64,000 nucleotides of DNA. Origin: Kiritimatiellia bacterium (GTDB lineage: Bacteria > Verrucomicrobiota > Kiritimatiellia > RFP12 > UBA1067). The stretch lies in the NCBI GenBank assembly GCA_017463935.1, contig JAFUEM010000002.1, positions 531 to 64,530 on the forward strand, given 5' to 3'. Position numbers and translations under genes: made by a program. This document shows positions 2,821-20,778 of this stretch, piece after piece. The notes below the pieces were generated by a model. It was not told the origin of the DNA. It ran no database searches and saw nothing but the letters and a program-made list of their open reading frames with translations. Positions within the stretch are counted from its first letter, which is position 1; the number at the start of each line of letters is the position of its first letter.

Positions 2821-2855
2821 CCGAGAAACACAAAAGGCCGCCCTTTCGGACGGCC
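2821..2855 (-). terminator. Rho-independent terminator (minus strand)
   Basis: On the minus strand, GGCCGTCC-GAAA-GGGCGGCC (2836-2855; 8-bp stem including one G-U, GNRA loop) is followed by TTTTGTGTTTCT. The core 18-mer GCCGCCCTTTCGGACGGC recurs at 19779-19796. Confidence 0.7.
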
Positions 2856-2860
2856 ATCGA

Positions 2861-2888
2861 CTTCAGACTTCGGACTTCCGACTTCCGG
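2861..2888. repeat. Tandem heptamer block (CTTCNGA x4)
   Basis: Reads cttcaga cttcgga cttccga cttccgg. It starts exactly where homology of the truncated GT2 copy to its intact paralogue ends. Confidence 0.85.
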
Positions 2889-3281
2889 TGACTCAAATGC
2901 GGAGGCGACATGCGCCAGCGTCTCGTCGCTTGCCAGCACATCGTCGGCGTTCAAGATTCCAACGACATCGCCCGTCGCCATCTTGATGCCCTTGTTGATG
3001 GCGTCGTACATGCCCCTGTCCGGCTCGCTGATCCAGCGGAAGGTACACCGCTTGTTTTGAACGCAGAGCCGCAGAGGCGCAGAGTCTTTTAAATGTGCCG
3101 AACACGTAGCAGGCTCAATCTTTGCCGCATACTCCTTTATTACATCGACCGTGCCATCGGACGAGCCGCCGTCAACGACGATGTACTCGACATCTACGCC
3201 CTTCTGCGAAAGGACGCTCTCAATCGCCGTCCCAATCGTCTCCGCGCTGTTGTAGCAAGCGGTTATAAGTGAAATCTTCAT
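2889..3281 (-). pseudogene. Family-2 glycosyltransferase, 5' fragment (truncated paralogue of 23443..24225)
   Basis: MKISLITACYNSAETIGTAIESVLSQKGVDVEYIVVDGGSSDGT... matches the intact copy up to ...TLAHVASAFES, and then homology stops. It carries a ~22-codon insertion containing CGCAGAG repeats. The C-terminal ~130 codons are missing. Confidence 0.8.
3062..3085. repeat. Tandem octamer block (CGCAGAGN x3)
   Basis: Reads cgcagagc cgcagagg cgcagagt, read through in frame as ..APLRLCV.. The same unit recurs at 22030-22062. Confidence 0.85.
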
Positions 3282-4133
3282 TTGCAAATCCTCTCTATCG
3301 CCTTTTTCAGCAACTCCACTCTCTCCGCATCAGTTCCGTCTCGGTACCCCTTCAGGCAAACCAACCGCCCACCGTATGAATTTCCATCTTCCCACGCCGG
3401 AGCACCGTCTGTGGTAATGACTCTCTTCCCGCGCTCGAGGGCTTCGGCGACGACACGTCCGAAGTTCTCAGAAAGCGTTGGTAGCACAAGGACTTCGCAC
3501 CATTGCCACACGCGTTCAAGTTCCTCGCCCTGTGCGTCAGAGACAATCCGCAACTCGACATTAGGTAGACCAGCTACGGCCTGTTCAAGATATTCAATGC
3601 CTTTTAAGGGATGCTTGCGCCCAAGATACAGCAAATGTACTGGATTGGAAATGTACTGGATTGGAAATGATAAAATGGGTCTGACTTGTTTTATCATTTT
3701 GCGGCAGGCAGAAAAAGCGCTTTAGATTTGTGAGTTCAATTTTCCGTGCCCCTGGTTCGTATTCTCTTATCCATTTTGCTTCTGCTTCGCATGTAGCAAG
3801 CAGCACATCAGCCCTTCGTAGCATACGATGTTCAAAGAATGATACAAGTTTCTTCTTCCACCCGTGATATGCTCTACGCACAGGGTCATAGCTACCAGCC
3901 GGACGAATGTACAGCTTTGCGCCAACCGCTTTCGCCTTCTTCGCCACCCGCCACAACACCGGCAGCCACGCGCCATGTATCATTACAACATCGACGCCAG
4001 CAACGATCTGGGCGTGGATATTCGTCAAGCTCGAATCATCACCCCGTGCAAGCTCTTCATTGACAAACTGCCGCGCAGTATTTGCCATCCCGTTCCAGGA
4101 CTGTAATCCTGCGCAAAAGTGGACAACTTTCAT
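3278..4133 (-). pseudogene. GT4 (group 1) glycosyltransferase, frameshifted paralogue of 24222..25112
   Basis: ORFs 3594..4133 and 3278..3697 together align end to end with the intact GT4: MKVVHFCAGLQSWNG vs MRILHICAGWQKWNG, LLYLGRKHPLKG vs LLYLGRRHPLKG, and C-terminus ..ERVELLKKAIERICK in both. The frame breaks inside the 16-nt tandem duplication at 3633-3664. Confidence 0.85.
3633..3664. repeat. 16-nt perfect tandem duplication (AAATGTACTGGATTGG x2)
   Basis: The two units read directly at 3633-3648 and 3649-3664. Removing one unit joins ..HFIISNPVH to LLYLGRKHPLKG.. in one frame. Confidence 0.9.
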
Positions 4134-4604
4134 TCTGCTGCCATATTGTACTTTCGACCGCTCAATCTCATCGAATCAAATTTACGCTTCACCCAACTCC
4201 CATCCAATACCGAAGCTATTCTGGTAAGATTGCGCCAAAAGTGTTCATGTCTAATGCCGAGCTTGCACATCAAGTGCGCTCTCTCCGCCCTATGTTCATC
4301 GCGATTTTTCCCTCCCATCGTCTTTGATTCATCATGTACGCGAAACCCCCATACATAACCGCCTAGCCCGACAAACCTCTCGCCCGCCTTCGCCCAGCGC
4401 GTCCAAAGATCAATGTCCATCACATACTTAAGCTCAGCGTCAAATCCGCCGCGCTTCTCCCAAAGCTCACGGCTGAAAAACGCACTCGGCCCTCCCGTCC
4501 AGACACTCAGATTCTTCCGAACCAACTACGCCACTTCGCATCCGTCCTGACATCCTTCACAATCCCTTGTTCGTCGATATAAACAGTATCTCCTACTACC
4601 CAAT

Positions 4605-4637
4605 TAATCCTGTCAATCCTGTTAATCCGGTCCAAAA
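4605..4637 (+). repeat. 32-nt tri-nonamer element, AATCCTGT family, copy A
   Basis: taatcctgtcaatcctgttaatccggtccaaaa versus consensus cAATCCTGTaAATCCTGTtAATCCTGTcAAAA has 3 mismatches and 1 extra base. It is read in frame as ..LDRINRIDRIN.. Confidence 0.85.
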
Positions 4638-4782
4638 CTTTCTTCAGCGCACCAGGCAGCAGAACATCATCGGCATTCAGCCAGAACAGCCACTCGCCCT
4701 TCGCCTTCTCAAACCCCTTGTTCAGCGCATCGCTCTGTCCGGCATCTGGCTCCCGAATCCATTCCACACCTCGCAAATCCAC

Positions 4783-4812
4783 CACTCCCAACTCCTCCAC
4801 TCCCAACTCCTC
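4783..4812. repeat. 15-nt perfect tandem duplication (CCACTCCCAACTCCT x2)
   Basis: Read directly and encodes EELGVEELGV. It sits at the N-terminal truncation point of the GT2 pseudogene. Confidence 0.85.
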
Positions 4813-4845
4813 CGTCCTGCACAATGATCTCCAAGCCCCTGCGCT

Positions 4846-5313
4846 TTAAGCGAATCGATAGCTTCGCCAAAGAAAGGTCTTCAGCAGCGGCAACGTTGTA
4901 TCCTTCGCATAGTCGCCAGTCGCAATAATCTTACTCGCCTTCCCCGCCTTGAACAATCTTGCCGCCTGCCAGACGCGATCGGCGCTTGTCGCCATCTCTG
5001 CATATGAACTCGTGTTCGTCTCGATGCCCATCGAACCACCCAGCAGCACTATTACGTCCGCTTCGGGGAACGACTCCACCATCGGCACCCTGCCATCCAC
5101 CAGAAACTCCTTCTCCAACGGCACGCCGACAATCCAAGTCATAATCGGCGTCATCCATTGCCACAGCCATGCGACAGTCAGCCAGCCGAGCCACTTCGCC
5201 ACGCGCTGCCGCTTCAGCCGAGCGCAAATCAACGCCCCCGCGCCGCCAATAATCGCAAGCCCGACGGGGCTCACCACACAACCTATTAATTTATGTAGTA
5301 CATATCTGCTCAA
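4846..5313 (-). pseudogene. DUF218 (YdcF/ElyC-like) protein, C-terminally truncated paralogue of 25936..26670
   Basis: TTG start. ..VLLGGS.. and RVWQAARLFKAGKA align with ..VLLGGG.. and RVWYAAKLYNAGKA of the 244-aa copy, but the ORF diverges and stops about 90 codons early. Confidence 0.55.
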
Positions 5314-5447
5314 CTCAAACTGTCACGGCAGATATTTTACCATTTCCTGATGAGTTGGAGCACCGAAAACTGAGGCGTCAAAACCATCCGCGGCACCGGC
5401 TATCACCTCTCCCCAGACTACCTCACACGCGCCCCCCTCGGCACTTG

Positions 5448-6077
5448 CTAATCTTCATGAATTCCAACAAGCCTAATTGTCATCTCCGATGGAAGTCCGT
5501 TTGTCAGCGCATTAACATCCGCGGCCTTGTCAACAGAAAGTAATGCGTCTGCAGCATTGAATCTAAACGCATCCCTCAATGAAATGACGTCAGGAATTTC
5601 CGGGCCGAACAATGCCGACCATACATTTGTGGATCTTTCAAGACCAGATGTCGGTGCAATCGGAATCGTATTCGTGGCAATGGAATAAATCTTCGCATAC
5701 TCTTCACCCAAAGCCAATGACTGCATCAGAACAAGGCGAGCCCCAAAGAACCGCCAGTCTTTTGGCCTGTTTGCATATTCGCGCTCTATAGCCCACAGCA
5801 GATTTGTCGCTTCCACACGAGCCAAAGTGTCGTGTTCCGTTTCCGCACGCTCAAGAAGCACTGCAGACTTAAGCAATCTACACTCAACCAGTTCGTCGCC
5901 ATTGGTTGTTGCCACAATGAGCGCATTGATTTGATTCATGGAGCCCATCCTCTCCAGATAATTTGTAGATGAAAAGTCATGAAGAATGCTAGTCATCTGT
6001 TCGTGATAATTGACCTCTGCAGGCAGCGCGAACACTGCGCAACAAACAGCCAATACTGATAGGAATTTAACTTTCAT
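5448..6077 (-). CDS. Secreted hypothetical protein (accessory protein of envelope module 1)
   Basis: ATG 6077 overlaps the upstream stop (ATGA). Signal peptide MKVKFLSVLAVCCAVFALPA. It shows weak similarity (NYH.., ..ATTNGDELV vs ..AANTNDLV) to 11859..12323 and 12333..12809. Confidence 0.6.
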   Translation of the reverse strand: MKVKFLSVLAVCCAVFALPAEVNYHEQMTSILHDFSSTNYLERMGSMNQINALIVATTNGDELVECRLLKSAVLLERAETEHDTLARVEATNLLWAIEREYANRPKDWRFFGARLVLMQSLALGEEYAKIYSIATNTIPIAPTSGLERSTNVWSALFGPEIPDVISLRDAFRFNAADALLSVDKAADVNALTNGLPSEMTIRLVGIHED

Positions 6078-8599
6078 AGATTTATTTCCTCCACGATCTC
6101 CAGATATTTACTGCGTAGATTCCATCCTCGACCGTCTCTCCTGAAATATCTATACTCGATCTTTCCACCTTGCAGAAGCCGTATTGCACAGGCATTGCGA
6201 CCATTCATATTATCGTTTGCCCGCATCCATGCCGCCACGTCACCAAGTGAACTCCTATTCGCGCACCAGCTATTGATGATTTGCACACCGCCTTGGTTGT
6301 CAAGCGGCGCCTTCCAGCAATATCCGAGAAGCGCACTTGCGCCTGATAATGTTGCCCATTTTAATCCTGGGCTCGCTGAATGACTTGCCGGATTTGAATA
6401 ATGATTTCCCTTGTCGCCGATGTCCAACACCGAACATCCGGCAAAAATGACCGTCTCAACATCCCTCCAATGGTTTGTCACGTCCGCCGGCACCGCAACG
6501 CCGTAAAGCCTTCCGGTGTCATGCTCGCCATGCCCCGAATAGTAGAACACATCGGCCTGCTGCTGGCACTGCTTCTTCGTAGAACAAGACGCTCCGCACG
6601 ATGCCATAAGGCAGCCCGTCCCTGCCGCCTGAACGGTCTTGAGGTTAAACTCGCCCTCGGGTATCTGCGCGTCGGCATTGCCGCCCCATCTTCCGCGCGC
6701 CCGTCCATAAAGTCGACCCGTCGTATTCTCATCAAAGCAGTCGCTGTCTATCCTGTCACTTCCCGCGTCGGGCCCATTTGCCATGTCAACCGAGGTCTTG
6801 GCGACAATTTCATCATCGGCATTGCGAATAATGCCATTCGACTGGAGCCAGGCGGCAGCAACCGACACGCGAAAGACGTTCTGCCCTTGCGAAGTCGTAG
6901 TTGTCGCGCTTATGGGAATCGCCGCACCAGCTATATCGTGCGCTCCGTCAAAATCGACATAATACGATTTGAGCCGGATTCTCCCGCCAAAGAGCCCTAC
7001 AAAGGCGGAGACTGTCATCTCAGAACCGCCGACAGTCGCCTTCACAATGACAGACTCTCCGACTATCACAGGGTATTTCCATTCAATGGCGTTGCCAGAA
7101 GCGTCCAGTATCTCAAGACTGACGCCGCGACTTTCAATCTCGTCAATGCTCGCCTGGTCTTCATAATAGCAACGACATCTCCCCCGCCAGGAGAACGGAT
7201 ACGAATACCCTTCCCATTTTGCGGCACCCGAAAGCGAATGTTCCGAACCGCCGCAGAGACATTGCAGGGAGCAACCCCACGAGAAACCAATCTCGTTCGT
7301 CACGCACGAGCAGCAACCGCCTGCGATGTTAAGGATTCTCGGGCCGACATCTATTGGCGAAGTGTGTGCAACATAGCTGTCGGAACCGCCGCGCATCTGA
7401 ACCCGCTCAAACGGCAACTCCAACGGCAAAGAAACGGTTAATCGGTTCGCGTCGTTTGTCACGATCTCCGCGTATTCGCTCGACACGGCAGAGTAGTCAA
7501 TCGGCAAGTTGCTATCGACTGCGTATGTCGCGCCAGCGAGAAGCGGGATGTGACAGACTTGGTTTGTCCGCGCAATGATCACATGGTCGCCAAGGTCGCT
7601 CGCTCCATCGCAAGTGACGCGGATCGCCGCAACGCCGAGAAGCCCAGTTACCGAAAGATCAAGCCAGTAGTAGGCATCGGGATTCGCGTTTGGTGGCAAG
7701 CCGTTTGCCGCGTCAAAGAAATCTCCGTCGTAGCTTGCCGGGTTCGCGTCTCGCTCGTTATGGATTCCATCATCATCCCAATCGTCGGGGTTGATGCGGC
7801 GGCAGACAGTCTCGACATCGTTGGAGCGTGTCAGGAAATCGCCATTGGGGGAAAGGATGATCTGCGCGTTGACGGGGCAGTTCGTGTCGCCGCCGAGGAA
7901 GAAGCTTTCCCATGTGAGGATGCGGACCCCGTCTTCGCCATCAAGCCGCCACAGTCGGCTTTGTTCTGGAACGGCAGACATTGGAACGCCAACGGCGCAG
8001 ATTTCGTGCGCGGCATCGTGCGGAGCCGGGCGTATGCGACCATCGATGAAATACCAAAACGACGAAAACGCCTCGTCGTTTGTGCCGAGCGGGAACGACC
8101 AATTGGTAGGGACGAGCGTCCCGCTCGTCCGCAAAACGCCGAAATCAACCACATTGTTCCCGAACGACGATGCCGCGCCGTGGATGTGCCAGTTCCCGAC
8201 AAGCGCTGCGTTCGTAGGCATCGCATACGAAACCGCCGCATTAGTCGTAACGCTCTCCACTCGCCACCCGCGCATAATGTCATCAATAGTTGTCTGGACA
8301 GGATTCACAAGGCTTATAAGATTACCAATCCCCACCAATCCTGTCAATCCTGTCAAAAAACTTCCACTAGGTTGCATCTGCGGCTGATTCATATTCGGCG
8401 GCACATTGTTCGTCTTCTGCGCGGTAAGAGTTGCGACAACTGCCGCTGCGGCAAACCCCAGCAAAAGCGAGCGCGGCAACCGGCGAAGTGCCCGCAGACC
8501 AACAACAGCGGCGTATGCAGCCGCAACAGCGAACATCGCCATTACAGTGCAGTAGCCAATATATAACCAATCCACTATCACTTCATTCCCCAAATCCAC
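6074..8599 (-). CDS. Giant membrane-anchored Cys-rich protein with C-terminal CHAT/caspase-like domain (envelope module 1)
   Basis: GTG 8599 lies 8 nt after GGGAGAAG. There are two N-terminal hydrophobic segments. A roughly 370-aa region is shared with 12842..15658 (AMPTNA, HGAxSxFG, SRLW, TWExFFxGGDTNxxVNAQI, NGDFxxRSND, RRINPxDWDxDG, CDGxSxLGD). Then come a Cys cluster (GGCCSCV..CLCGG..GRCRCY) and a C-terminal FYYSGHG-(31 aa)-CSVLD..LLGYCWKAPLD. Confidence 0.7.
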   Translation of the reverse strand: MDLGNEVIVDWLYIGYCTVMAMFAVAAAYAAVVGLRALRRLPRSLLLGFAAAAVVATLTAQKTNNVPPNMNQPQMQPSGSFLTGLTGLVGIGNLISLVNPVQTTIDDIMRGWRVESVTTNAAVSYAMPTNAALVGNWHIHGAASSFGNNVVDFGVLRTSGTLVPTNWSFPLGTNDEAFSSFWYFIDGRIRPAPHDAAHEICAVGVPMSAVPEQSRLWRLDGEDGVRILTWESFFLGGDTNCPVNAQIILSPNGDFLTRSNDVETVCRRINPDDWDDDGIHNERDANPASYDGDFFDAANGLPPNANPDAYYWLDLSVTGLLGVAAIRVTCDGASDLGDHVIIARTNQVCHIPLLAGATYAVDSNLPIDYSAVSSEYAEIVTNDANRLTVSLPLELPFERVQMRGGSDSYVAHTSPIDVGPRILNIAGGCCSCVTNEIGFSWGCSLQCLCGGSEHSLSGAAKWEGYSYPFSWRGRCRCYYEDQASIDEIESRGVSLEILDASGNAIEWKYPVIVGESVIVKATVGGSEMTVSAFVGLFGGRIRLKSYYVDFDGAHDIAGAAIPISATTTTSQGQNVFRVSVAAAWLQSNGIIRNADDEIVAKTSVDMANGPDAGSDRIDSDCFDENTTGRLYGRARGRWGGNADAQIPEGEFNLKTVQAAGTGCLMASCGASCSTKKQCQQQADVFYYSGHGEHDTGRLYGVAVPADVTNHWRDVETVIFAGCSVLDIGDKGNHYSNPASHSASPGLKWATLSGASALLGYCWKAPLDNQGGVQIINSWCANRSSLGDVAAWMRANDNMNGRNACAIRLLQGGKIEYRYFRRDGRGWNLRSKYLEIVEEINL
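8297..8360. repeat. Back-to-back inverted pair of AATCCTGT-family blocks (copy B plus a degenerate partner)
   Basis: gacaggattcacaaggcttataagatt (8297-8323, reverse orientation, degenerate) is followed by caatccccaccaatcctgtcaatcctgtcaaaaaa (8326-8360). Both are read in frame as ..FLTGLTGLVGIGNLISLVNPVQ.. in the linker after the membrane anchor. Confidence 0.8.
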
Positions 8600-8675
8600 C
8601 CATCAATCTTCTCCCTATGTCCCCTGCCCAACCCACCACGCGCAGTTCTTCCGTGTCACCCATTGAAATCACATA

Positions 8676-8717
8676 GTTATCTTCTACGGAAGGAAACGTC
8701 CTTCTGTAGAAGATAAC
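8676..8717. other. 19-bp stem hairpin (possible terminator or insulator)
   Basis: gttatcttctacggaagga-aacg-tccttctgtagaagataac has 18 Watson-Crick pairs plus one G-T and a 4-nt loop. There is no clear U-tail on either strand. It lies between the defence pair and the 841-aa gene. Confidence 0.6.
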
Positions 8718-8772
8718 CCCTTTCATCTGTGGATAAATCCACTTTCGTCGTTAGCCCCGCCAATCTGTGGAA

Positions 8773-9195
8773 TCACGACTTGTCTTCCGGCTTCAATTTC
8801 TCACATGTCTCTTCCACATTCGCATGAACAAGAGTCATGCAACGCGCAAGCACAAGTTCTGCGCCATCCGCCCGGTTGTTACAGCACTCGCATAATGGCG
8901 CTATAAACACCCGCTTATCATCTGAACCCTTTATCATCACATGACATCCTTCTATCTCAGCAAGCTTTCCATTTTTTGTCTTTCCAGTGCAACCAGCAAC
9001 CGCACAATCCCCAGCCCCAGGGGCATTCTTATCGCTTAAAGTCTCCCAATGCCTTATCCATGGACCGCAATTTGGGCATTCCCTGCTTTTCTTTGCCGTT
9101 CCATTTCGATTGATCAATACAGTCCCCGCAGGAACAAATTTCTGCGAGAAAATCTTGATTATCTCGTTAGCAACCTCATCATTTTGATTTTCCAT
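8773..9195 (-). CDS. Small Cys-rich putative zinc-binding His-Me (HNH-like) finger protein
   Basis: ATG 9195 is preceded by GGAGGT. The protein is 140 aa with 10 Cys. The pattern CPNC..CAVAGC..GCHV..(D)KRVFIAPLCECCNNR fits a zinc-stabilised beta-beta-alpha nuclease finger. There is no closer family assignment by eye. Confidence 0.45.
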   Translation of the reverse strand: MENQNDEVANEIIKIFSQKFVPAGTVLINRNGTAKKSRECPNCGPWIRHWETLSDKNAPGAGDCAVAGCTGKTKNGKLAEIEGCHVMIKGSDDKRVFIAPLCECCNNRADGAELVLARCMTLVHANVEETCEKLKPEDKS

Positions 9196-9438
9196 TTGGC
9201 ACCTCCATTTCTTGGATTATTCTTATGTTGTGACCGCACTCGCAGTCAGCGGGAAAGTTAGAAAAGAATTCCTACAAGTTTCTACAAAATCGCAGGAAAT
9301 TTGACAAGACAAGAATTGGTCTTTTATGCTTGCAATGGCAATAGTATCCTATTTGCGCCGACAATATCAATGCAACCTTGCGCTCTTTCTCAAACTCGCG
9401 CCACACGCCTGACATGAAGATTCGGTAGGTCATACAAG

Positions 9439-11787
9439 TTATGCGTGGTGGACAATTTTAAGAGCAAGGTTCACATAAGTTTTCAATTCTATTGGATCTG
9501 GAACATCTGCAGAAACGCCTGTAACCCGATGATGGAAACGCTGAGTATATGCGTTAACATCTTCCAAGTCTGTTACAAGACATTTACAAGGCGCCATTAC
9601 ATCATGTATTTGGGCGTTTTTGATACAGCTTATCATATCACCAAGCCAGACTTTCTCTCCAAAATTCAATGGATACTTATAGTGAAGATATGTTTCCAAT
9701 AGCGGCCTAATCCGTCCAACGACTTCTTTTAGTTTATCATGATAAAGATCTGGATTGTCCGCATAACCTGCTAGTTCCATATAATCCGTTTCATACGATT
9801 TTGATGGCAACTGCGGAAGTTCGCCATGCTTCAACTCTATTGCAGAACCCATTTGAGGAATCTCAAATGCCCGAATCTCATTACGTGCAATACCCTTGTC
9901 GGACATAAACATCTGAACAAATTCAATATTATGTGAGAGCAGGAAGAATTGGGAACACGCGTTTGCTTTCCGCTTTAGCAGACTAATTGTCTGCGATTGT
10001 CTACTACGGTCTTGATCGTGATATGGATCATCAATAACTACAATTGCGGAAGCAAGATTAGAATCCGTTTCCAACTTGGCCAAAAAGAACGCCAAGGCCA
10101 AGGCGCTACAGTCTCCACCACTTAAACTATTTGAAAGAGACAGCCGCGATGGGTCATCAGCCGCCCCAGATGAACAGTCAACTTGTGCTGACTGTCCATT
10201 AGCTGAGATTTTTATAGACAATTGCCCCGACGCCACACCTCCTCTCAAATTGACACCATCGTTTCCAACAGTAAAATTGACTCCAAATACGCCAAGAATT
10301 TCATTAATCTTATCTCCAAATGAATCAAATATCGACTTAGACTCTTCTTTTAGAGCATCATTAGCTTGCGTCTTCGCATCTTGAGCGGCTTGCTTGGCTA
10401 ATAGCGCACTATCATATTCCTGATAAGCGCTAACAACACTTTTCTCATAACGTTTCTTCTGTAGTTCTAACAGACTTAACTCTTTAGTAGAATCGTCAAT
10501 GTTGATGGTAGCAATTGACCGTTGGAACTCCTTTATTTGCGCATTGGCTACATCAATAGCATCGTTATATGCTGTAATACACGATTGCATACTGCCAAGT
10601 GAATCTAATGCAACAATCTCGCTTTCAAGCAGGGGAACTGCAATGGTCAGATTACTTTGCTTCCGCGCTATCGCCGCCAATGCCACACGAAGAACCCGTG
10701 AATAGATCCCTTTAATGGCTTCAACATCAAACGATGGCAATGCAATCGACAAGCCACAGGCATCTTTCCACCATGAAACGTCTCCAGAATTTTGTTTTGC
10801 AACATTAACTAATTCTATTTGTGCCTTATCCCCCATACAACTTTGAAAAGCAGATCTAACACCACTTCGACGATTTTCTTGTTGTTTCAACGCCCCAGAA
10901 AAGAATACTTTATATGTTGTAAATAAATCAACATGAGACATAACCTGCCCACAGTATGGGCATAGTGTCCCAGTTTGAGCCTCATATCCTTGTTTTATCC
11001 AGTCAACAGACAACTTTTTAGGATCTGAACATAGAGCAAGGTGTTCTTTGATTTTTCCTTCCGCAGTCAACGCCGCGTCATCAAGCGTTGTCGACAAAAC
11101 ACTTTCCAAATCACTTTTTGCAATTGACGGCATTGCTATCTTTTGCATCAACCCATGTTTACGAATCTGATCGGCCTTGGACTTTTTATTTTTATCAGCA
11201 GTAATACGCGCCTTGAGTCCCAATATCTTAACATCAACATCATCAACTTTCTCAAGTGTTCTGAAGGTATCTATCTGCTGACCCGCCGGGATCAGAGCTG
11301 AAAGCACAGATGCACATCGCGAAACAGCCTCTGTTGCTCTAGTAAGTTCATCTCCTGCTTTTTGAACAGCCCTATTAAGTTCAATTGCTTTTGGCCCTAA
11401 TGCCAGACTATACACATTTCGCTTCTGCTCAACACCAATTTGGCCACCGACAATCACATTATCCTTGACAAATCGTTGGTCAAAAACAAGAATGTGCGAT
11501 CCATCAAGTGGACAATTCCATTGTCCATTATTAAATACCAGATGCTGATTATTATCGGAAAGCAAGTCAATAAGCGGTTCCGCCTCTCCGCCAATCCTCT
11601 TACGTCCAATAACATACGATGAATTTTGTGTATCCAACGATCTGAGAACGTCGCACAGTGTTGTCTTTCCGCAAGCATTTAGAGCATATATGACATTCAC
11701 CTTGCTAAACTCACCATCATTACCGCTTGATGACCTAAGCTTCTCGAATCGACCAACGTTTTCTAGTTTAATGATTCTTTTTATCAT
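9439..11787 (-). CDS. RloC/AAA_13-like ABC-type ATPase with coiled-coil zinc hook (candidate anticodon nuclease or defence ATPase)
   Basis: ATG 11787 is preceded by AAGGAG. Walker A is ALNACGKTT, with signature LSGGD and Walker B IVVIDDP in the C-terminal third. A long helical insertion contains CPYC (aa 276-279, nt 10951-10962). The C-terminal RPLLETYLHYKYP..QRFHH resembles the PrrC/RloC-type tail. Confidence 0.6.
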   Translation of the reverse strand: MIKRIIKLENVGRFEKLRSSSGNDGEFSKVNVIYALNACGKTTLCDVLRSLDTQNSSYVIGRKRIGGEAEPLIDLLSDNNQHLVFNNGQWNCPLDGSHILVFDQRFVKDNVIVGGQIGVEQKRNVYSLALGPKAIELNRAVQKAGDELTRATEAVSRCASVLSALIPAGQQIDTFRTLEKVDDVDVKILGLKARITADKNKKSKADQIRKHGLMQKIAMPSIAKSDLESVLSTTLDDAALTAEGKIKEHLALCSDPKKLSVDWIKQGYEAQTGTLCPYCGQVMSHVDLFTTYKVFFSGALKQQENRRSGVRSAFQSCMGDKAQIELVNVAKQNSGDVSWWKDACGLSIALPSFDVEAIKGIYSRVLRVALAAIARKQSNLTIAVPLLESEIVALDSLGSMQSCITAYNDAIDVANAQIKEFQRSIATINIDDSTKELSLLELQKKRYEKSVVSAYQEYDSALLAKQAAQDAKTQANDALKEESKSIFDSFGDKINEILGVFGVNFTVGNDGVNLRGGVASGQLSIKISANGQSAQVDCSSGAADDPSRLSLSNSLSGGDCSALALAFFLAKLETDSNLASAIVVIDDPYHDQDRSRQSQTISLLKRKANACSQFFLLSHNIEFVQMFMSDKGIARNEIRAFEIPQMGSAIELKHGELPQLPSKSYETDYMELAGYADNPDLYHDKLKEVVGRIRPLLETYLHYKYPLNFGEKVWLGDMISCIKNAQIHDVMAPCKCLVTDLEDVNAYTQRFHHRVTGVSADVPDPIELKTYVNLALKIVHHA

Positions 11788-11830
11788 TTCATCACTCCTT
11801 CTTAGAGAAAAATTCCATGACCTTTCCTCA

Positions 11831-11861
11831 ATCTACACGTTCTACATGTTCTACACGGCTA
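11831..11861 (-). repeat. Tri-nonamer element, GTGTAGAAC family, solo copy
   Basis: The reverse complement tagccgtgtagaacatgtagaacgtgtagat shares TAGCCGTGTAGAAC.. with the arm at 23411-23442. It abuts and overlaps the stop codon of 11859..12323 and lies 44 nt upstream of the ATPase start. Confidence 0.85.
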
Positions 11862-12323
11862 TTTCTGGAGCGGCGTCCAGAGGCCGGTTTCCGAGATCTG
11901 TTCAAGGATGAAGTCGCAGTCCAAGGGCTTGTGCGAGATCTGGGACTTCGCCCTTTGCTCCTGAAGGACGGCGTCGGTCTGTTGCGGCAGAAATTCGTCG
12001 AGGTAGTACACCCACCCGGACCGAAGGTTGGAGCACAGATTCGTGAGCGACGGCTCGCTTACGGAGTCCAATGCGCAGACAAGGCGCTGTATCGAGTTTG
12101 ACATAGCCTGGTAGTCCGAAAACAATATGTCGTACGAAACCATGAGGTGCGAGGCGACGAGGTCGTTCGTGTTCGCCGCCAGACGCTGCTGCGCCAGCTC
12201 GTAGACGTTCGTCCAGTTGCCCTGATACCAGTCGTTCGTAACAGCGTGATAGTTGTCCGCCGACGGGGCCGCATGCGCGAACGCCGAGAGCGAGAATGCA
12301 ATTGCCGCGATTGTATTCTTCAT
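11859..12323 (-). CDS. Secreted hypothetical protein (tandem paralogue 2, envelope module 2)
   Basis: ATG 12323 follows GAGGGA. Signal peptide MKNTIAAIAFSLSAFAHA. It shares YHAVTNDWYxGNxxNVxELxxxRLAANTNDLV with 12333..12809. Confidence 0.7.
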   Translation of the reverse strand: MKNTIAAIAFSLSAFAHAAPSADNYHAVTNDWYQGNWTNVYELAQQRLAANTNDLVASHLMVSYDILFSDYQAMSNSIQRLVCALDSVSEPSLTNLCSNLRSGWVYYLDEFLPQQTDAVLQEQRAKSQISHKPLDCDFILEQISETGLWTPLQK

Positions 12324-12332
12324 GTCGTTCCC

Positions 12333-12809
12333 TCATTGCTGATTCACCGGCGTCCACATCCCGTTGTCCCAAAGGAGCTTGAGCCACCTTTTTTCGGGGA
12401 TCGGCTTGTGGGGAAGGCTCGCCTTCGGCAGTTCTGCACGCCGCATCTCCTCCGTCACGTTGGGCAGCACCTGGTCGCGGAACGCCACCATGACCGGACG
12501 CAGCCTCTGGAAGTCGTTGCTGAACGCGGCGTTCGTCACGGCGTCGGAGAGGGCTATGGTCCGCGTCACGGAATTGGACAGCGTCGGGATGTCGGCGAAG
12601 CAGATGTCCCAGCTCAGCTTGAGATAAGCCCCCACAAGGTCGTTCGTGTTCGCGGCGAGCCTTGCCGATGAGAGTTCGAGCACGTTCGAGAAGTTCCCGT
12701 TGTACCAGTCGTTCGTAACGGCGTGGTAGCTGTCCTGCGAAGGGGCAGCCGCGGCCACCGCTCCGGCCATCGTGAAGAGCGCCGCCAGCATTGTCGTTTT
12801 TCCAGTCAT
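12333..12809 (-). CDS. Secreted hypothetical protein (tandem paralogue 1, envelope module 2)
   Basis: Internal ATG 12809 (MTGKTTMLAALFTMAGAVAAAAPS.., AGGAA upstream) of track ORF 12333..13322. The 5' extension of that ORF overlaps the 938-aa gene and is rejected. Confidence 0.7.
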   Translation of the reverse strand: MTGKTTMLAALFTMAGAVAAAAPSQDSYHAVTNDWYNGNFSNVLELSSARLAANTNDLVGAYLKLSWDICFADIPTLSNSVTRTIALSDAVTNAAFSNDFQRLRPVMVAFRDQVLPNVTEEMRRAELPKASLPHKPIPEKRWLKLLWDNGMWTPVNQQ

Positions 12810-12841
12810 TTCCTTGTTCCTTTCTTTTCGAGTATCCATTG

Positions 12842-15658
12842 TCAATGCCCGTCCCCGACGCGCTGCGTCGTGAATCCGGGCGAGATGAAGTTGAAGTTGA
12901 AGTCGATGTCGGGCATGAATGTCGTGTGGTTGTCGGTCGGCCTGGCGTTCGGCCACAGCCGCCTTTCCTTCACGTCCGCGCCTGCCCAGACGTTCGTGGC
13001 CATTGCCTGCATCGTCTCGTCGAGGTCGGCTCCATCCGCGACGGCAGTCCCTGCATCCCAGCTCGCCGATCCGGCATCGTCGTCCCATGTGCCGTACCTG
13101 TAGCGGGCAAGCCACCGGGAGAGCGCAAACACATTGATCCTCTCCGTTTCGTATGCAACGAGAAAATTCGAGAGCTTCGCGACGCGCATGGGCACTCCGC
13201 GGAATGTCGCCACGGCACCCATGCCCGAAAGGTCGTTGACCTGGTTGTAGTGCCACACCGTCGGTGCCAAGGCGGAGTCCACTCGCCCGAGGTAGTCGCC
13301 GACGCCGTTGTCGTTGAACCATTCCTCGCCAAATGAAATGGTCTGCCGCTCAAGGTACGTGTAGTGCGAAAGCAGGTGCGCTATCGTCGCGTCCACGTCC
13401 ACCATGCCGGAGGCGAACACGCCGTCGATGCTCGCTCCTGAGAGCGGAAGCACCACGTTGCCCTCCGTCCAAGGGGAGCCGTCGCAGCGGCCCCTGAAGC
13501 GGTATACCCCTCCCTGCGTGGGATTCACGAATTGCGCCGCAAGCCCGCCCCCGTGCGAGAACGCACCGCTCATCTGCGGCTTCGCCTCGATGACCTCCCA
13601 GTCGCAGGGAAGCGACGATCCGTTCACCCCCGTCGGCGCGAGGACAAGGTTCATGTCCACGGTGAAGTTCGTGACGGAGAACCCACTGTCGCCCAGCGCC
13701 GCGACATTGCAGAACGGAACGACGAGATGTCTGTCCGAGGCGAGACTGTTCGTGATTGAAAAAGGACATGCCGTCTCGCCGTTGAACGTAGGCGGGTTGG
13801 GACTTGTCCCTGCGTATGCGCATGTCATGTCAAGATTCGTCACGCAGGCGACAGTGAGGTGCGCCATGTTAGTGTACGACTGTCCGGCGATCTCGCTCAC
13901 AAGCCGAAACTCCACGTCGTCAATCGAATCGCTCAGAACCGCGCCCTTTACCTCCATCCAGCCGCTCCCCTGCGAGAGAACAGTTATCTTGTCCGCCCCT
14001 GCCGTGCATTCAAGCGACATCGACGCCTCAGCGTTCGACGAGCCGGGCGGATCGTACACACCCGAGACGATGTGGCTGTTGCCGCCGCGCATGATCACTC
14101 GCGGCGCGGAGATGGAGACCCACGCCGAAGTGTTCGTCTCGTTCACGCGCTGGCAGCCGCACTGCGACTCCCAGTTGAACAGCCTTGAGTATCCCTCCCA
14201 GAGTGCCGTCACCTGCCACCACTGCGAATAGCCAGAGCAGTGGCAGGTGTCGCAGCAGTTCCACACATAATTGCTCGCATTGCATTCAACAGAGCAGCAG
14301 TTGCCGGTCACCGCGCCGATCACCACGCCTATATCTGGGCTGCTCGTAATGCGTCCGCCGCTCTCGCCTCCCTCAAGATCGATGTCGACCGGCCTCTCGA
14401 CCTCAAAATCGTCGCTCGGCCCAATTCCGCCACCAGCCCCCAGCAAACGCAGTCCTGGCGTCGGCAAATTTGATGGTCGAACTGTGTTCGACCTATCCAC
14501 TATCTCCGCCTCTGAGTCGCTTGCCGCTATGCCATCCACCGGCCAGCTTGCGGTCACGTGGTATCTCGCCCCCATCAGCATCGGCACTTCGCACGCCTGC
14601 CCCTCGTTGGCCAACACGACCATGTCGCCGAGGTTACTCGGCCCGTCACAGGCGATCGTCACCCTCGTCCCGTCATGTGTCGGCGCAAACGCAAGCCAGA
14701 AGTAGGCGTTTTCGTTGGCATCCGCGTTCCACACTATTTCGTATCCGTCGTCCGCATCAGGCACCGCCGACAGCACGCCCCGGCAATTCGCGTTGAGCCA
14801 GTCTAGTCCGGTTCCGAAGCAGTCGCCGTCGGATGCCGTCGGCCATTCGTCGATCAGATTGTCGAGACCGTCTCCGTCCCAGTCGTTCGGGTTGATGCGC
14901 CGGAACACCCTCAGAAAGTCGTTGCTTCTCACTGTAAAGTCGCCGTTCGCGTTCAGGGTAATCTGCGCGTTGACGGCCTCGTTCGTGTCGCCGCCCGCAA
15001 AGAACCGCTCCCACGTGACAGTTCGCGTACCTTCGCTCGCGTGCGCCCACAGGCGGCTTTCTCCTTGCATTGCAAGCGTGTCCCCCAGTTCAGCCGAAGC
15101 CATGAACTCGGAACCACGCAGCGCGTCCTGCAGTCTCCCGTCCATGAACCACCAGAATGCCGAGGTCGTCGCGTTGCTCGGCCCATAGGGAAACGCCCAG
15201 CCTGTCGCCTCTCCTCCGACGGAATCAAGATCAACGACGTGCCTTCCGAAATCAGACCGAGCACCATGCAGGTGAAGCTTTCCGATGTACACGGCGTTCG
15301 TCGGCATGGCAAAAGAATGCCCCGCTTCGTTTGTAACCGATACAAGCCGATATCCTTGCGCTATCTCTTCCGCCGTCACCGTCGGCTCCGGCTCTCCCAC
15401 CCCTGCCAAGCGTAGATTTGATAGCCGAAATATGCTCGACCTGCCGCCACCATTGCCCGGCTTCTGTGCCTCGACCGTGGCAACAACCGCCATAGCAACA
15501 AGCAGAGTCTGCACAAAACGCGGCAGAGCCCTAAGCTGCCCCCACGCCGCCTTGAGCGACCTTCTCATTGTCATTGCGGCGAGCATGCCGTAGAACAGCA
15601 GGCCCGCAGCAAGCGCGACTAAATTCCAGTTAATCTCCATCGAAATCGTTTCACCCAT
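12842..15658 (-). CDS. Giant membrane-anchored Cys-rich protein (envelope module 2), paralogue of 6074..8599 with an unrelated C-terminal half
   Basis: ATG 15658 (alternative 15640). The double hydrophobic N-terminus, shared ~370-aa region and Cys cluster (GNCCSVECN..CCDTCHCSG..SQCGCQ) match module 1. The C-terminal ~450 aa have no counterpart in the 841-aa protein and no recognisable domain. Confidence 0.7.
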   Translation of the reverse strand: MGETISMEINWNLVALAAGLLFYGMLAAMTMRRSLKAAWGQLRALPRFVQTLLVAMAVVATVEAQKPGNGGGRSSIFRLSNLRLAGVGEPEPTVTAEEIAQGYRLVSVTNEAGHSFAMPTNAVYIGKLHLHGARSDFGRHVVDLDSVGGEATGWAFPYGPSNATTSAFWWFMDGRLQDALRGSEFMASAELGDTLAMQGESRLWAHASEGTRTVTWERFFAGGDTNEAVNAQITLNANGDFTVRSNDFLRVFRRINPNDWDGDGLDNLIDEWPTASDGDCFGTGLDWLNANCRGVLSAVPDADDGYEIVWNADANENAYFWLAFAPTHDGTRVTIACDGPSNLGDMVVLANEGQACEVPMLMGARYHVTASWPVDGIAASDSEAEIVDRSNTVRPSNLPTPGLRLLGAGGGIGPSDDFEVERPVDIDLEGGESGGRITSSPDIGVVIGAVTGNCCSVECNASNYVWNCCDTCHCSGYSQWWQVTALWEGYSRLFNWESQCGCQRVNETNTSAWVSISAPRVIMRGGNSHIVSGVYDPPGSSNAEASMSLECTAGADKITVLSQGSGWMEVKGAVLSDSIDDVEFRLVSEIAGQSYTNMAHLTVACVTNLDMTCAYAGTSPNPPTFNGETACPFSITNSLASDRHLVVPFCNVAALGDSGFSVTNFTVDMNLVLAPTGVNGSSLPCDWEVIEAKPQMSGAFSHGGGLAAQFVNPTQGGVYRFRGRCDGSPWTEGNVVLPLSGASIDGVFASGMVDVDATIAHLLSHYTYLERQTISFGEEWFNDNGVGDYLGRVDSALAPTVWHYNQVNDLSGMGAVATFRGVPMRVAKLSNFLVAYETERINVFALSRWLARYRYGTWDDDAGSASWDAGTAVADGADLDETMQAMATNVWAGADVKERRLWPNARPTDNHTTFMPDIDFNFNFISPGFTTQRVGDGH
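12886..12903. repeat. Tandem hexamer block (TGAAGT x3)
   Basis: Read directly. It encodes ..DFNFNF.. nine codons before the stop of the 938-aa gene. Confidence 0.7.
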
Positions 15659-15665
15659 CTACTGC

Positions 15666-16142
15666 CTATCTGAGCCTTATAGAGAAGGTCTTGTTCTCAA
15701 TGATCTCGGAGACCGTCTCCCCAACAGACCCCGGTCCACGTTTGACAACCTTCGCAAGGTCCCAGACCGGATTGAAGTGTCGGTGTCCTATGCTCACCAT
15801 GTCCACCGTTACATCGGCGACAATCCCCTCTTGGTAATCCACGAGGTACCGCTCGCCGCAGTCGTCGCCGAACACGAACGCCGTCTCGTTCTCGGACAGA
15901 TCGCCGTTCTCGTCGGCGTCGCAGCCGACAGCGACCAGCACCTCGCTCGCAGTTGCGTCAGAGACCTGAATCCTCAGGCTGAACACATCAAGCCGCTCTG
16001 CGTTTACCCGCAGCGGGATGTTGGTGGCGACCTCAGTGTCCGGGAGCGTCCCCTCCGGAAGCTGCGGCCAGTCGCACACCTTGACCGCGTATGCACCGAG
16101 CGAAAGCACTGCGGTCATCGCCGTGACAGTAAGTTTCTTCAT
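15666..16142 (-). CDS. Secreted hypothetical protein (first gene of envelope module 2)
   Basis: Internal ATG 16142 (GAAAGGA upstream) gives MKKLTVTAMTAVLSLGAYAV.. with a signal peptide and no recognisable domain. Confidence 0.6.
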   Translation of the reverse strand: MKKLTVTAMTAVLSLGAYAVKVCDWPQLPEGTLPDTEVATNIPLRVNAERLDVFSLRIQVSDATASEVLVAVGCDADENGDLSENETAFVFGDDCGERYLVDYQEGIVADVTVDMVSIGHRHFNPVWDLAKVVKRGPGSVGETVSEIIENKTFSIRLR

Positions 16143-16316: not shown

Positions 16317-17015
16317 ATGAGAACCTTGAGAGTACTTGTAGCAGAAGACACGACACCCGACTTCGATGCAATCAGATCGCACATCGAATCGATGAAGGTC
16401 GAAGGATGCCGGTTCGAGGTCGTCAGGACGAGCGACGGGCGCGAGGCGCTTTCGCGAATGCGGAACGAGGACTTTGCGCTCGTCGTGCTCGACGTGTGCC
16501 TTCCCCGCATGGACGGCCGCGCCATACTGAAGAGCATCCGGCGTCAGAAGCCGTTCCTGCCGATTGTCGCCGTGAGCTCCTTTCAGGGCGACGCCGGGGA
16601 GTCCGAAACGCTGAACGCTGGTGCCGACGACTTCATCGCGAAGCCGTTCAGCGAGCGGACATTCCAGGCACGGATAAAGAAGGCGCTTTGGCACGGAAGC
16701 CTTGCGTCGATGGAAAAGACCTTCTCCTGGGGGCATGTCCGCATGACCATCGACACGCGCGCCGCCGAATACCGGGGCGAGAGGCTGGATCTCTCGGACC
16801 ACGAGTTCAACATCCTCCTGCAGCTTGTCCAGGCACAGGGGCGCATCGTCGAGGCCAACGCGCTGGAACGCTCCGCATGGGGCGACGTCGAGCGCTTCTC
16901 CATGCGTCTGGCGAACAAGATCAAGACCCTGCGAAACAAGTTCGAGGCGCTTGGCGCGCCCCGAGAGATCATCGACACGAACAGAGGTATGGGATATGTT
17001 CTTCGCGAATACTGA
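16317..17015 (+). CDS. OmpR/PhoB-family response regulator
   Basis: Receiver domain (..ALVVLDVCLPRMDG..KPF) plus a winged-helix output (..LSDHEFNILLQLV..GMGYVL). TATAAT at 16305-16310 ends 6 nt before the ATG and there is no SD, so the transcript may be leaderless. Confidence 0.85.
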   Translation: MRTLRVLVAEDTTPDFDAIRSHIESMKVEGCRFEVVRTSDGREALSRMRNEDFALVVLDVCLPRMDGRAILKSIRRQKPFLPIVAVSSFQGDAGESETLNAGADDFIAKPFSERTFQARIKKALWHGSLASMEKTFSWGHVRMTIDTRAAEYRGERLDLSDHEFNILLQLVQAQGRIVEANALERSAWGDVERFSMRLANKIKTLRNKFEALGAPREIIDTNRGMGYVLREY

Positions 17016-18253: not shown

Positions 18254-19624
18254 TCATGCTTCGATCATTCGTCTTTGACTTGACTTCGCTTCCTTGATAA
18301 TGCCGTCAAGAATGGACGTGTCCAGCAAAAAAGGAATCACCCCTACATGCAGGATGCCGTCTTCATCGGGGCGCAACTGACCATATCCATTTTCCACCAC
18401 TATCTTCTGGAAAAAGTCCGCTGTGAGTTTCAAGGATTTGGTTTCCTGTTCCGCCTTGCCCGGGCGGGACATATCGTATGCAGATTGGATATAGACCTTG
18501 TTGAATCCCGCATTGACGATGAAATCGATCTCGTACCGGCAGGAAACCATTTTTCCCTCATCATCCCTGCGGTTTACATCAACCACACCGACATCTACAT
18601 TGTAGCCACGAAGGACAAGTTCATTGTAGATTATGTTCTCCATCAAGTATGTCGGCTCAACCTCCCTAAAATTCAATCTTGCATTGCGAAGACCTACATC
18701 CTCGGCATAGTACTTGCTTGGGTACAGAAGATATTTTCGTCCCCGGACTTCATAGCGTGCGGCTTTTGCAAACAAGAATGAATCGACAAAATAATCGAGA
18801 TATGACTTTACGGTAGGCTCGGACGTCTTCAAGACGCCTCGCGAATTGATCGTATTGGCAAGTTTGTTGGGGTTGGTAAGGGATCCTACAGACGAAGATA
18901 CCACATCCAACACCGATTCGCAGATGGCATCAGTCCGCAAATGGTTGCGTTCAATTATGTCCTTAATGTAAACCTTGGAAAAGAGACTCTTGAGATACTC
19001 TGCCCTCGCGACATCGTCCGCCTCCATGACCGCCACCGGCATTCCGCCCCATATCATATATGCGGAAAGAGCCTCGGATTTGTCGGCATATCCCGTCGCC
19101 TGCAGATATTCCGCGAAGGAGAATGGATGCAACCGAATTTCTACGCCTCTGTCTCTAAAATTGGTTGCAACATCCTTCGACAGAAGTTTTGAATTGGAGC
19201 CAGTCACATATACATCGACGTTCGGCTTTTTGCGCAGGGAATTTAGGATGTCGTAGAAGGTAATATATGCATCCTGTCGGTCTTCGGGCGCAACATCCCG
19301 CAGTTTTACTCCCGACTGGAGAACTTTGCGACACATCTGAACTTCATCTATAAACACATAAGTCCACTTGCCATCATCCGGCAGAAGGGAAACGATGAAG
19401 TCGAAGAGCTTGTTTGGATTGCGCAGATGAACGTTCTCTTTGCTTTCCAAATCCACGCCAATGATATGGCCGGTATCGACACCTTCGGAAATCAGATGCT
19501 CACGGAACAAGTTGAATAGCAGGAACGACTTGCCGCACCGTCGAATGCCAGTGACGATTTTCACGAAACCATCGTGTTTCCTTGCTATCAGTCTCGATAG
19601 ATATCGCTCTCGCCTTACTTTCAT
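18254..19624 (-). CDS. AAA-family ATPase with DUF4143-type C-terminal domain (COG1373-like)
   Basis: MKVRRERYLSRLIARKHDGFVKIVTGIRRCGKSFLLFN.. carries a Walker A motif. The overall 456-aa architecture is typical of AAA_14 plus DUF4143 proteins. Confidence 0.7.
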   Translation of the reverse strand: MKVRRERYLSRLIARKHDGFVKIVTGIRRCGKSFLLFNLFREHLISEGVDTGHIIGVDLESKENVHLRNPNKLFDFIVSLLPDDGKWTYVFIDEVQMCRKVLQSGVKLRDVAPEDRQDAYITFYDILNSLRKKPNVDVYVTGSNSKLLSKDVATNFRDRGVEIRLHPFSFAEYLQATGYADKSEALSAYMIWGGMPVAVMEADDVARAEYLKSLFSKVYIKDIIERNHLRTDAICESVLDVVSSSVGSLTNPNKLANTINSRGVLKTSEPTVKSYLDYFVDSFLFAKAARYEVRGRKYLLYPSKYYAEDVGLRNARLNFREVEPTYLMENIIYNELVLRGYNVDVGVVDVNRRDDEGKMVSCRYEIDFIVNAGFNKVYIQSAYDMSRPGKAEQETKSLKLTADFFQKIVVENGYGQLRPDEDGILHVGVIPFLLDTSILDGIIKEAKSSQRRMIEA

Positions 19625-20746: not shown

Positions 20747-20778
20747 TTTTGACAGGATTAACAAGATTGACAGGATTA
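20747..20778 (-). repeat. 32-nt tri-nonamer element, AATCCTGT family, copy E (intergenic)
   Basis: ttttgacaggattaacaagattgacaggatta matches the arm at 24650-24681 at 29 of 32 positions. It ends 14 nt upstream of the sugar transferase start codon. Confidence 0.85.

Follow-up and report, generated by a model that had tools for sequence, protein, structure and literature searches.

Two paralogous giant-protein modules of a Kiritimatiellia bacterium: most likely members of an undescribed family of exported modular effectors with head-specific partners

The locus described here raises the question of what kind of system is encoded by two paralogous gene modules of a Kiritimatiellia bacterium. Both lie within the region 5448-16142 of a 64,000-nucleotide (nt) stretch of contig JAFUEM010000002.1 (the whole stretch being referred to as the window), and each is centred on a giant protein (giant 1, listed at 841 amino acids (aa), and giant 2 at 938 aa) with small proteins encoded beside it. 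All six open reading frames (ORFs) of the modules are present on the minus strand where an earlier note on this DNA had placed them; that note had seen in them the logic of polymorphic effector loci (a conserved delivery or anchor part, an exchangeable C-terminal part and small downstream partners). The analyses suggest that the two modules are most likely representatives of a so far undescribed Kiritimatiellia family, one of modular effectors that are Sec-exported and have head-specific partners, i.e. polymorphic toxin–immunity cassettes. Judged from sequence comparison, their organisation as modular head-plus-partner cassettes is very probable, and a probability of roughly 0.55 is assigned to such cassettes acting as antagonistic toxin–immunity pairs.

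The constant part of the family is evident from the two giants themselves. Giant 1 aa 9-477 and giant 2 aa 9-502 align at 35% identity (E=3e-79) with no similarity past that point, as had been claimed, except that the shared region measures ~470-500 aa instead of the ~370 aa given earlier. Hydropathy confirms two N-terminal hydrophobic segments in each (giant 1 aa 11-38 and 41-61; giant 2 aa 12-31 and 45-65), separated by an Arg/Lys-rich loop, and the AlphaFold2 (AF2) model of giant 2 has helices at aa 11-30, 32-43 and 47-64. The second segment looks like a signal peptide with an extra helix ahead, because it is short, ends in a conserved A-Q-K (A64 and K66 invariant, Q65 nearly so in alignment A2, giant 2 numbering) and has a small residue at position -1 and either V or L at position -3; cleavage may occur between A and QK. 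Across 34 diverse relatives, the calcium-type motif PxDWDxDGxxNxxD (P271, D273, D275, D277, G278, N281, D284) and four cysteines (C429, C447, C449, C475) are invariant and C430, C443 and C477 nearly invariant, so that the calcium-site-like motif and cysteine cluster read by eye are genuine features of the shared part.

The model of giant 2 (mean pLDDT, the predicted local distance difference test score, 83.6) is ordered as helices (aa 11-64), a disordered linker, a beta-sandwich (~aa 100-255), the PxDWDxDGxxNxxD loop and two immunoglobulin-like (Ig-like) domains, the second of which holds the conserved cysteines; the tail continues with more Ig-like domains (aa 514-740) and an all-helical head (aa 745-900). 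Giant 1 (mean pLDDT 66.9) is modelled on the same N-terminal plan, with an alpha/beta head at the end. Foldseek searches with the whole models returned Ig-like arrays (invasin 1cwv, the S-layer proteins EA1 and SbsB, titin, complement MG domains), and these generic arrays dominated the output, so that the fold of the giant 2 head was not assignable from them. A separate observation concerns the DNA of the linker: a 9-nt tandem repeat, AATCCTGTC, and its variants give 9 matches at five sites of the window (4599-4634, 8330-8364, 20752-20777, 24331-24356 and 24655-24680) against 0.2 expected, encoding TGLTGL of the disordered linker in giant 1 and, in another frame, RIDRID in ORF 4507-4824. In homologues, TGLTGL…NPVNPV corresponds to an inverted pair of such repeats and is variable in length.

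Profile searches place the shared region in no described family, as had been presumed. The giants and small proteins gave nothing significant against Pfam, NCBIfam and PADLOC (the Pfam TSP3_bac and EF-hand families included, despite the apparent calcium-type and EF-hand-type loops of the giants and the upstream protein), and PDB sequence-profile searches with full-length giant-family profiles (A1, A2), the heads of giant 2 (A4) and giant 1 (A5) and the upstream protein (A6) returned only chance EF-hand-like fragments. Protein searches found >300 relatives for giant 1 and 113 for giant 2 (~85 of the giant 2 homologues being full-length), and every named protein among them comes from a Kiritimatiellae metagenome-assembled genome (MAG); in all, more than 400 relatives are on record. 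A scan of species-representative genomes yielded 79 loci, nearly all of them in MAGs from rumen or gut that bear the label Kiritimatiellia, Lentisphaerae or Verrucomicrobia; MAG JAZSOG01 alone carries ~9 and several others 4-5. Family loci on contigs binned as Faecalibacterium or Gemmiger (L059, L072, L081) are probably mis-binned Kiritimatiellia, rarely transfer. Tandem arrays of giants occur, since locus L008 has a third copy of the giant 5' region (22214-22635, 82% identical to window 8237-8659) downstream of its second giant. A 569-aa partial relative of giant 2 (P0208, on a single 4.2-kb contig) keeps the N region to ~aa 442 and then runs into RHS/YD repeats (PF05593, PF25023) in place of the cysteine-cluster domain, either a real RHS fusion or an assembly chimera.

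Onto this constant part, different C-terminal heads are joined. Heads from ~220 proteins and 130 genomic and metagenomic tails cluster into five classes and a short headless tail: class A (the giant 1 type, with a caspase-like His/Cys dyad), class B (the commonest), class C (a HEIGHA motif of the HExxH metalloprotease-like kind, with weak Reprolysin matches, E=0.002), class D (the helical giant 2 type), a rare fifth class (weak CHAP match, E=0.017) and a ~220-aa tail that is Ig-like only and lacks a catalytic head (L024, L022, L066, L038). No head type beyond these was found in 80 rumen-metagenome loci. In three of the four short-tail loci a 350-409-aa exported protein is encoded next (the L038 contig ends before the partner position), and this class may be a split version with the head encoded separately.

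Heads and N regions evolve independently of each other. Relative to giant 1, one homologue (P0023) is 53% identical in the N region and 88% in the C-terminal part, another (P0042) is 80% identical in the N region with no C-terminal similarity, and a third (P0206) joins a giant-1-like N region (54%) to a giant-2-type tail (48%). Sliding-window identity breaks at ~aa 478 (just after the C.C motif), ~391-400 and ~270-330, i.e. at domain boundaries; between giant 1 and a B-head relative it collapses at ~aa 478, just past the cysteine cluster, and the first stalk domain is also swapped among giants. The exchange can be followed at a single chromosomal site in L001 and L003, whose flanks are 82-87% identical and whose giant tails and downstream genes are unalignable (A head with a 215-aa partner in L001, B head with a 272-aa partner in L003); the DNA similarity ends within the giant and returns past the partner gene.

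At this site the partner gene differs along with the head, and co-variation of partner and head forms the second line of evidence. In the neighbourhoods of 75 complete giants, the first ORF behind the giant usually begins no more than a few nt from the giant stop, often with a 4-nt overlap, and its product has a signal peptide, a lipobox-like sequence or a transmembrane N-terminus. Among the 1,770 pairs formed by 60 non-redundant loci, head and partner are both homologous in 100, the heads only in 391 and the partners only in 0, and the adjusted Rand index of 0.81 between head families and partner families was reached by none of 1,000 permutations. Partner identity follows head identity (rho 0.64) more closely than N-region identity (rho 0.26), and N-region identity reaches 70% or more in 137 pairs, 65 of which have unrelated heads as well as unrelated partners. 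There are 20 partner families, which turn over faster than the head families. The decoupling of N and C parts, the L001/L003 cassette swap and a partner family that tracks the head family without exception thus bear out the effector-locus logic proposed for these modules, and both C-terminal variability and linkage to small genes are strong among the homologues.

For the partners of the window, family assignments are consistent with this pattern. A hidden Markov model (HMM) of the 209-aa family matches the gene right after A-type giants in seven loci (L001, L002, L009, L030, L031, L037, L010) and one ORF in L082, and the 209-aa partner is 36% identical to that of L001. The tandem 158-aa and 154-aa proteins downstream of giant 2 are secreted paralogues, as had been noted (41% identity, E=6e-40). 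The broader claim that the partners are homologous to each other holds for this tandem pair only, since the 209-aa protein, the 158/154-aa pair and the upstream 158-aa protein are three mutually unrelated families; every small protein has a single N-terminal hydrophobic, signal-like segment. The argument for a chaperone or assembly role from export and mutual homology loses its footing, because periplasmic immunity proteins are exported too and no homology joins the partner families of different head types.

The D head and its partner behave as a mobile two-gene unit, since they co-occur behind unrelated N-terminal architectures. In two of four loci with D heads on non-family proteins, the 158/154-aa HMM matches the immediate downstream gene (L091, E=4e-12; L088, E=5e-4), these being its sole matches among 176 ORFs; of the other two, the contig of L089 stops 351 nt past the giant, and in L090 no gene follows on the same strand. 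Matching of head and partner alleles is seen in close relatives. Locus L007, from the same species as the window (flanks 92-98% identical), has a giant tail 93% identical to that of giant 2 and, as sole partner, a 158-aa type 98.7% identical to the 158-aa partner of the window, the 154-aa type being absent. Locus L008 has a D head 51% identical to that of giant 2 and, as sole partner, a 154-aa type 84% identical to that of the window. The 154-aa gene is thus an orphan partner, being cognate to the L008 allele and absent from L007; a second orphan case is L082, with an A partner followed by a D-partner fragment. Window 2855-12330 (the 154-aa gene, an ATPase gene, a 140-aa gene, and giant 1 with its partner) is strain-variable, as L007 has other genes in that position, and it is in this variable island, among candidate defence genes, that the giant 1 module is located.

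What the two heads may do is suggested by their motifs and models. The A head conserves YYSGHG and AGCSVLD (H690 invariant, G721 and C722 at least 90% conserved), and both motifs directly follow predicted beta-strands (684-688 and 716-719 in the giant 1 model), an arrangement that reads as a caspase-like (clan CD) signature and makes the head a putative cysteine protease. Foldseek gave giant 1 (model pLDDT ~67) a weak match to the C11 protease iotapain (6nag; E=0.08, probability 0.63, 275 columns), and profile searches gave the A head no significant C11 Pfam match and no PDB sequence match. The CHAT-like C-terminus read into giant 1 stands as far as the His/Cys dyad is concerned, and the Pfam CHAT family (PF12770) does not match giant 1 and matches 1 of 35 family members at a non-significant E=0.061. 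Stand-alone proteins of Lentisphaerae, Pseudonocardiaceae and Chloroflexi are among the A-head relatives, which show weak matches to DUF6345, a family that is uncharacterised in the literature. The D head is rare (166 matches among 1.84 billion representative proteins) and lies at or near the C-terminus in the long matches inspected. Its conserved polar residues are D, Y, R, N, W and H; profile searches found no PDB sequence match and no assignable family. B heads had no match either, and neither B nor D heads show a recognisable catalytic motif.

A third component precedes the giants. The upstream 158-aa protein (41-59% identical to the copies of L001, L003 and L008) combines a signal peptide with a canonical EF-hand-type loop, DADxDGDLSxxE, and profile searches found no Pfam or PDB relatives. 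Its family HMM matches ORFs in ~50 related loci, in ~30 of them directly upstream of the giant (ahead of A, B, D and short-tail giants) and in the remainder downstream or elsewhere in the locus; it also matches an ORF ahead of a D-head protein of unrelated architecture (L089, E=8e-8). By its distribution, the upstream EF-hand-type protein appears to be a constant accessory of the family.

A mechanism can be outlined that would join these components. The N-terminal hairpin (hydrophobic helix, positive loop, signal-peptide-like helix and the A-QK site) would insert the giant into or through the cytoplasmic membrane, where it may be cleaved, and the flexible linker together with the calcium- and disulfide-stabilised beta-sandwich/Ig-like stalk would hold an enzymatic head outside the cytoplasm. 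The product of the immediate downstream gene, exported as a periplasmic protein, lipoprotein or membrane-anchored protein, would bind and neutralise the matching head in the producer, and recombination at domain boundaries would exchange both jointly. Extra partners such as the 154-aa protein could guard against the heads of neighbouring strains, and the upstream protein could assist export, assembly or presentation. Antibacterial targets and a route over the outer membrane would have to be supposed in addition. Exported partners fit effectors acting outside the cytoplasm, and the hydrolase-like heads, orphan partners, fast partner turnover, high copy number and variable-island site favour conflict over housekeeping.

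Several observations weigh against antagonism. No recognised toxin domain is found among the heads, and the hydrolase assignments are weak (E=0.002-0.08). The repertoire is small (five classes and a headless tail in ~400 proteins and 160 loci), compared with dozens in classical polymorphic toxins. The window proteins lack PAAR, TPS, LXG and RHS domains, no secretion system is consistently nearby, and an N-terminally anchored giant has no evident route to another cell, as neither delivery domain nor secretion system was detected. Outside the family, D heads sit on ordinary secreted multi-domain proteins with signal or lipoprotein starts and TSP3_bac, PKD, Big, Laminin_G_3 or transglutaminase-core domains, which are not toxin-delivery domains. 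Some heads (e.g. L090) have no adjacent partner, the orphan partners number two only, and displaced or orphan head fragments were not found.

The same absence of delivery machinery, the small repertoire and the occurrence of D heads on ordinary secreted proteins would be expected if the giants were envelope-anchored or secreted proteases or amidases for the producer's own use (on dietary or host proteins or its own envelope), with cognate inhibitors or foldases as partners and no antagonism. The resemblance of heads to proteases or amidases and the extracytoplasmic location of all components are equally in keeping with such enzymes, and an anchored stalk of about five or six Ig-like domains in the model could span the periplasm. 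Orphan partners without a matching head and cassette replacement at syntenic sites of close strains would nevertheless be hard to account for. The high copy number per genome, the strain-variable setting of giant 1 and a partner turnover exceeding that of the heads (the 391 pairs with heads but not partners in common) also speak for conflict, and own use is on the whole considered unlikely, albeit the most serious of the alternatives. Should the cassettes indeed be toxin–immunity pairs, the hairpin with its A-QK site, the stalk and the upstream protein may constitute a new delivery or presentation route in diderm bacteria of the Planctomycetes–Verrucomicrobia–Chlamydiae (PVC) group, by which Sec-exported effectors would attack rumen and gut neighbours without known secretion systems; this extension is decidedly doubtful.

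The stalk invites a different interpretation, in which the giants are surface adhesins or fibrils of variable type whose binding heads can be exchanged, serving attachment or evasion of recognition by phage or host, the downstream proteins being head-specific assembly chaperones and the upstream protein a structural subunit. Fold matches to invasin, S-layer proteins and Ig arrays, the calcium-type loops, the mosaicism at domain boundaries (the first stalk domain included) and the lack of a recognisable catalytic motif in B and D heads would suit adhesins. However, catalytic-type motifs are strictly conserved in A heads (YYSGHG/AGC) and in C heads (HEIGHA), assembly chaperones are not expected as orphan genes, and profile searches detected no usher, sortase or S-layer anchoring motif; adhesins are accordingly regarded as very improbable. 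A prophage tail-fibre-like system has the same formal gene logic (conserved N-terminus, receptor-binding variable C-terminus, downstream assembly chaperone) and BFVD fold matches that include phage Ig-like and tail proteins, but it is effectively refuted by the signal or transmembrane segments of the giants and all partners, the generic Ig-array nature of the fold matches, the absence of phage genes from the locus neighbourhoods (in which secretion-system genes were not found either) and a relative on only 1 of 2.9 million viral contigs.

The features of the two modules and their immediate surroundings are collected below.

Table 1. Features of the two modules and neighbouring genes, in window coordinates.
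Feature	Position	Strand	Basis or remark
Upstream gene, putative accessory, 158 aa	15666..16142	minus	Signal peptide and EF-hand-type loop
Giant 2, 938 aa: N-terminal helical hairpin, stalk, D-type tail	12842..15658	minus	ORF, alignment, AF2 model
Giant 2 aa 1-65: hydrophobic helix 1, Arg/Lys-rich connector, short signal-peptide-like helix 2	15464..15658	minus	
Giant 2 aa 96-505, constant stalk	14144..15373	minus	Beta-sandwich, calcium-type loop, Ig-like domain, Ig-like domain with Cys cluster
Giant 2 calcium-type loop	14849-14899	minus	
Giant 2 Cys cluster, within second Ig-like stalk domain	14153-14299	minus	
Giant 2 aa 740-938, D-type head, all-helical	12845..13441	minus	AF2 model helices aa 745-900
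158-aa exported partner, cognate of giant 2's D head	12333..12809	minus	L007 comparison
154-aa exported paralogue, orphan partner for another D-head allele	11859..12323	minus	L008 comparison
782-aa AAA_13 ATPase	9439-11787	minus	Match to PADLOC PDC-S06
140-aa Cys-rich ORF	8773-9195	minus	
Giant 1, 841 aa as listed: N-terminal hairpin, stalk, A-type tail	6074..8599	minus	AF2 model
Giant 1 Cys cluster, aa 429-477 (GGCCSC…C…C.C…WEGYS..F.W…C.C), constant/variable junction	7169..7315	minus	
Giant 1 aa 596-841, A-type head, caspase-like putative cysteine protease	6077..6814	minus	
Candidate dyad of giant 1 A head: His690; Cys722	6530-6532; 6434-6436		
209-aa exported partner of A head	5448..6077	minus	ATG overlaps giant 1 stop by 4 nt (ATGA)
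Response regulator, then histidine kinase	16317-17015 (regulator)		Divergent, upstream of module 2

Giant 2 starts 7 nt past the stop of the upstream 158-aa gene, which belongs to module 2 only; giant 1 has no copy of its own, and a small ORF just upstream of it was rejected as an accessory gene, being a conserved DNA leader. Since homologues start with MVDW or MADW, the true start of giant 1 is probably the GTG at 8581 rather than 8599. The modules are not adjacent, as the 782-aa ATPase (PADLOC candidate defence family PDC-S06, E=8e-60) and the 140-aa Cys-rich gene lie between them in low guanine-plus-cytosine (GC) DNA (43-47% GC for the ATPase, ~55-60% for the flanking modules). The two genes together look like a defence-island insertion, and both were rejected as module parts. 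In L008, the corresponding variable island holds a homologue of the 140-aa protein (55% identity), with DUF6119 and ThsA_Macro genes as neighbours. The DNA separating the 140-aa gene from giant 1 contains a near-perfect inverted repeat (8676-8717, 19-nt arms, 4-nt loop), which may be a terminator or regulatory hairpin, though it has no T-run.

The two-component system, which had been noted as adjacent, adjoins the module in the close relatives L007, L008 and L051 only (with a 50% identical regulator in L015) and is absent at the more distant D-type loci L021, L049, L053 and L054; it was therefore rejected as a module part. Just beyond it, a 456-aa protein (18254-19624, minus strand) strongly matches the PADLOC candidate defence family PDC-S01 (E=1.5e-105). 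On the scale of the window, GC is very uneven (41-69%), with a low-GC stretch at ~20-56 kb where minus-strand ORFs form a long run, and the modules have glycosyltransferase-like ORFs at their flanks, which suggests a variable envelope or polysaccharide region. Elsewhere, the C-head giant of L005 lies near a 157-aa CesT-family protein (1144-1617; type III secretion system chaperone-like) and is surrounded by very large unannotated proteins (745+, 877, 1174 and 1656 aa).

Kiritimatiellia are common in rumen and gut and, to our knowledge, almost unstudied, and we know of nothing on how they compete; our literature search found no paper linking Kiritimatiellae with polymorphic toxins. The family occurs in multiple copies, varies between strains and is not represented in Pfam, NCBIfam, PADLOC or PDB sequences. 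Should the heads prove to be toxins, with the partners conferring immunity, the modules would offer a first handle on interbacterial conflict in Kiritimatiellia, together with several new folds of effectors and inhibitors (A, B and D heads, ~20 partner families) and a new anchoring or delivery module. Even under the milder assumption of exported hydrolases with inhibitors, matched enzyme–inhibitor pairs and a reusable display scaffold would be gained.

Comparison with known systems helps in placing these cassettes. In the clan CD peptidases (C11 clostripain-like, CHAT, caspases), catalytic His and Cys each follow a hydrophobic beta-strand, as do YYSGHG and FAGCS of the A head; the likeness extends to the weak 6nag similarity and the weak DUF6345 matches of relatives, the structural match being below significance. 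Secreted cysteine proteases co-transcribed with inhibitors (staphopain/staphostatin; Bfp/Bfi of Bacteroides fragilis, family C10) and lipases with steric foldases (lipase/Lif) likewise pair an exported hydrolase with a specific small partner gene behind it. Unlike the giants, these pairs are not known to be modular, to swap heads on a common stalk or to have orphan partners.

Type VI secretion system (T6SS) effector–immunity pairs acting in the periplasm (e.g. Tse1/Tsi1 and the Tae/Tai amidases) resemble the modules in having hydrolase-type effectors outside the cytoplasm with an exported periplasmic or lipoprotein immunity protein encoded alongside, and one giant head class is weakly CHAP-like (NlpC/P60-type). 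In contrast, the giants show no T6SS genes and no PAAR/VgrG linkage and carry their own Sec-type N-terminus and a long stalk. Effectors of the prePAAR type, which rely on upstream Eag chaperones, resemble the giants in being large proteins with transmembrane helices at the N-terminus, encoded behind a gene of ~150 aa and ahead of an immunity gene. Neither prePAAR nor PAAR was detected in the giants, however, and their upstream protein appears to be exported, given its signal peptide and EF-hand loop, and not a cytoplasmic DUF1795 chaperone of the Eag type.

Polymorphic toxin systems (CdiA-CT/CdiI, Rhs and MafB, unified in the Zhang–Aravind concept) have in common with the family a constant N-terminal part with C-terminal domains swapped at a conserved junction, a small cognate gene directly downstream that co-varies with the C-terminal domain (here a genetic association only), orphan partners, several copies per genome and a home in variable islands. 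The family departs from them in its lack of TPS, PAAR, RHS, LXG or MafB domains and of an associated secretion system, in five head classes and a headless tail of which none is a catalogued toxin domain, and in displaced C-terminal fragments not being seen. Its N-terminal module (transmembrane hairpin, A-Q-K and an Ig-like stalk with cysteine cluster) and its conserved upstream gene for an exported EF-hand-type protein have no known counterpart in those systems. Within the polymorphic toxin–immunity kind, the apparent novelty of the Kiritimatiellia cassettes would thus reside in the anchor and stalk module, the heads and the constant accessory gene.

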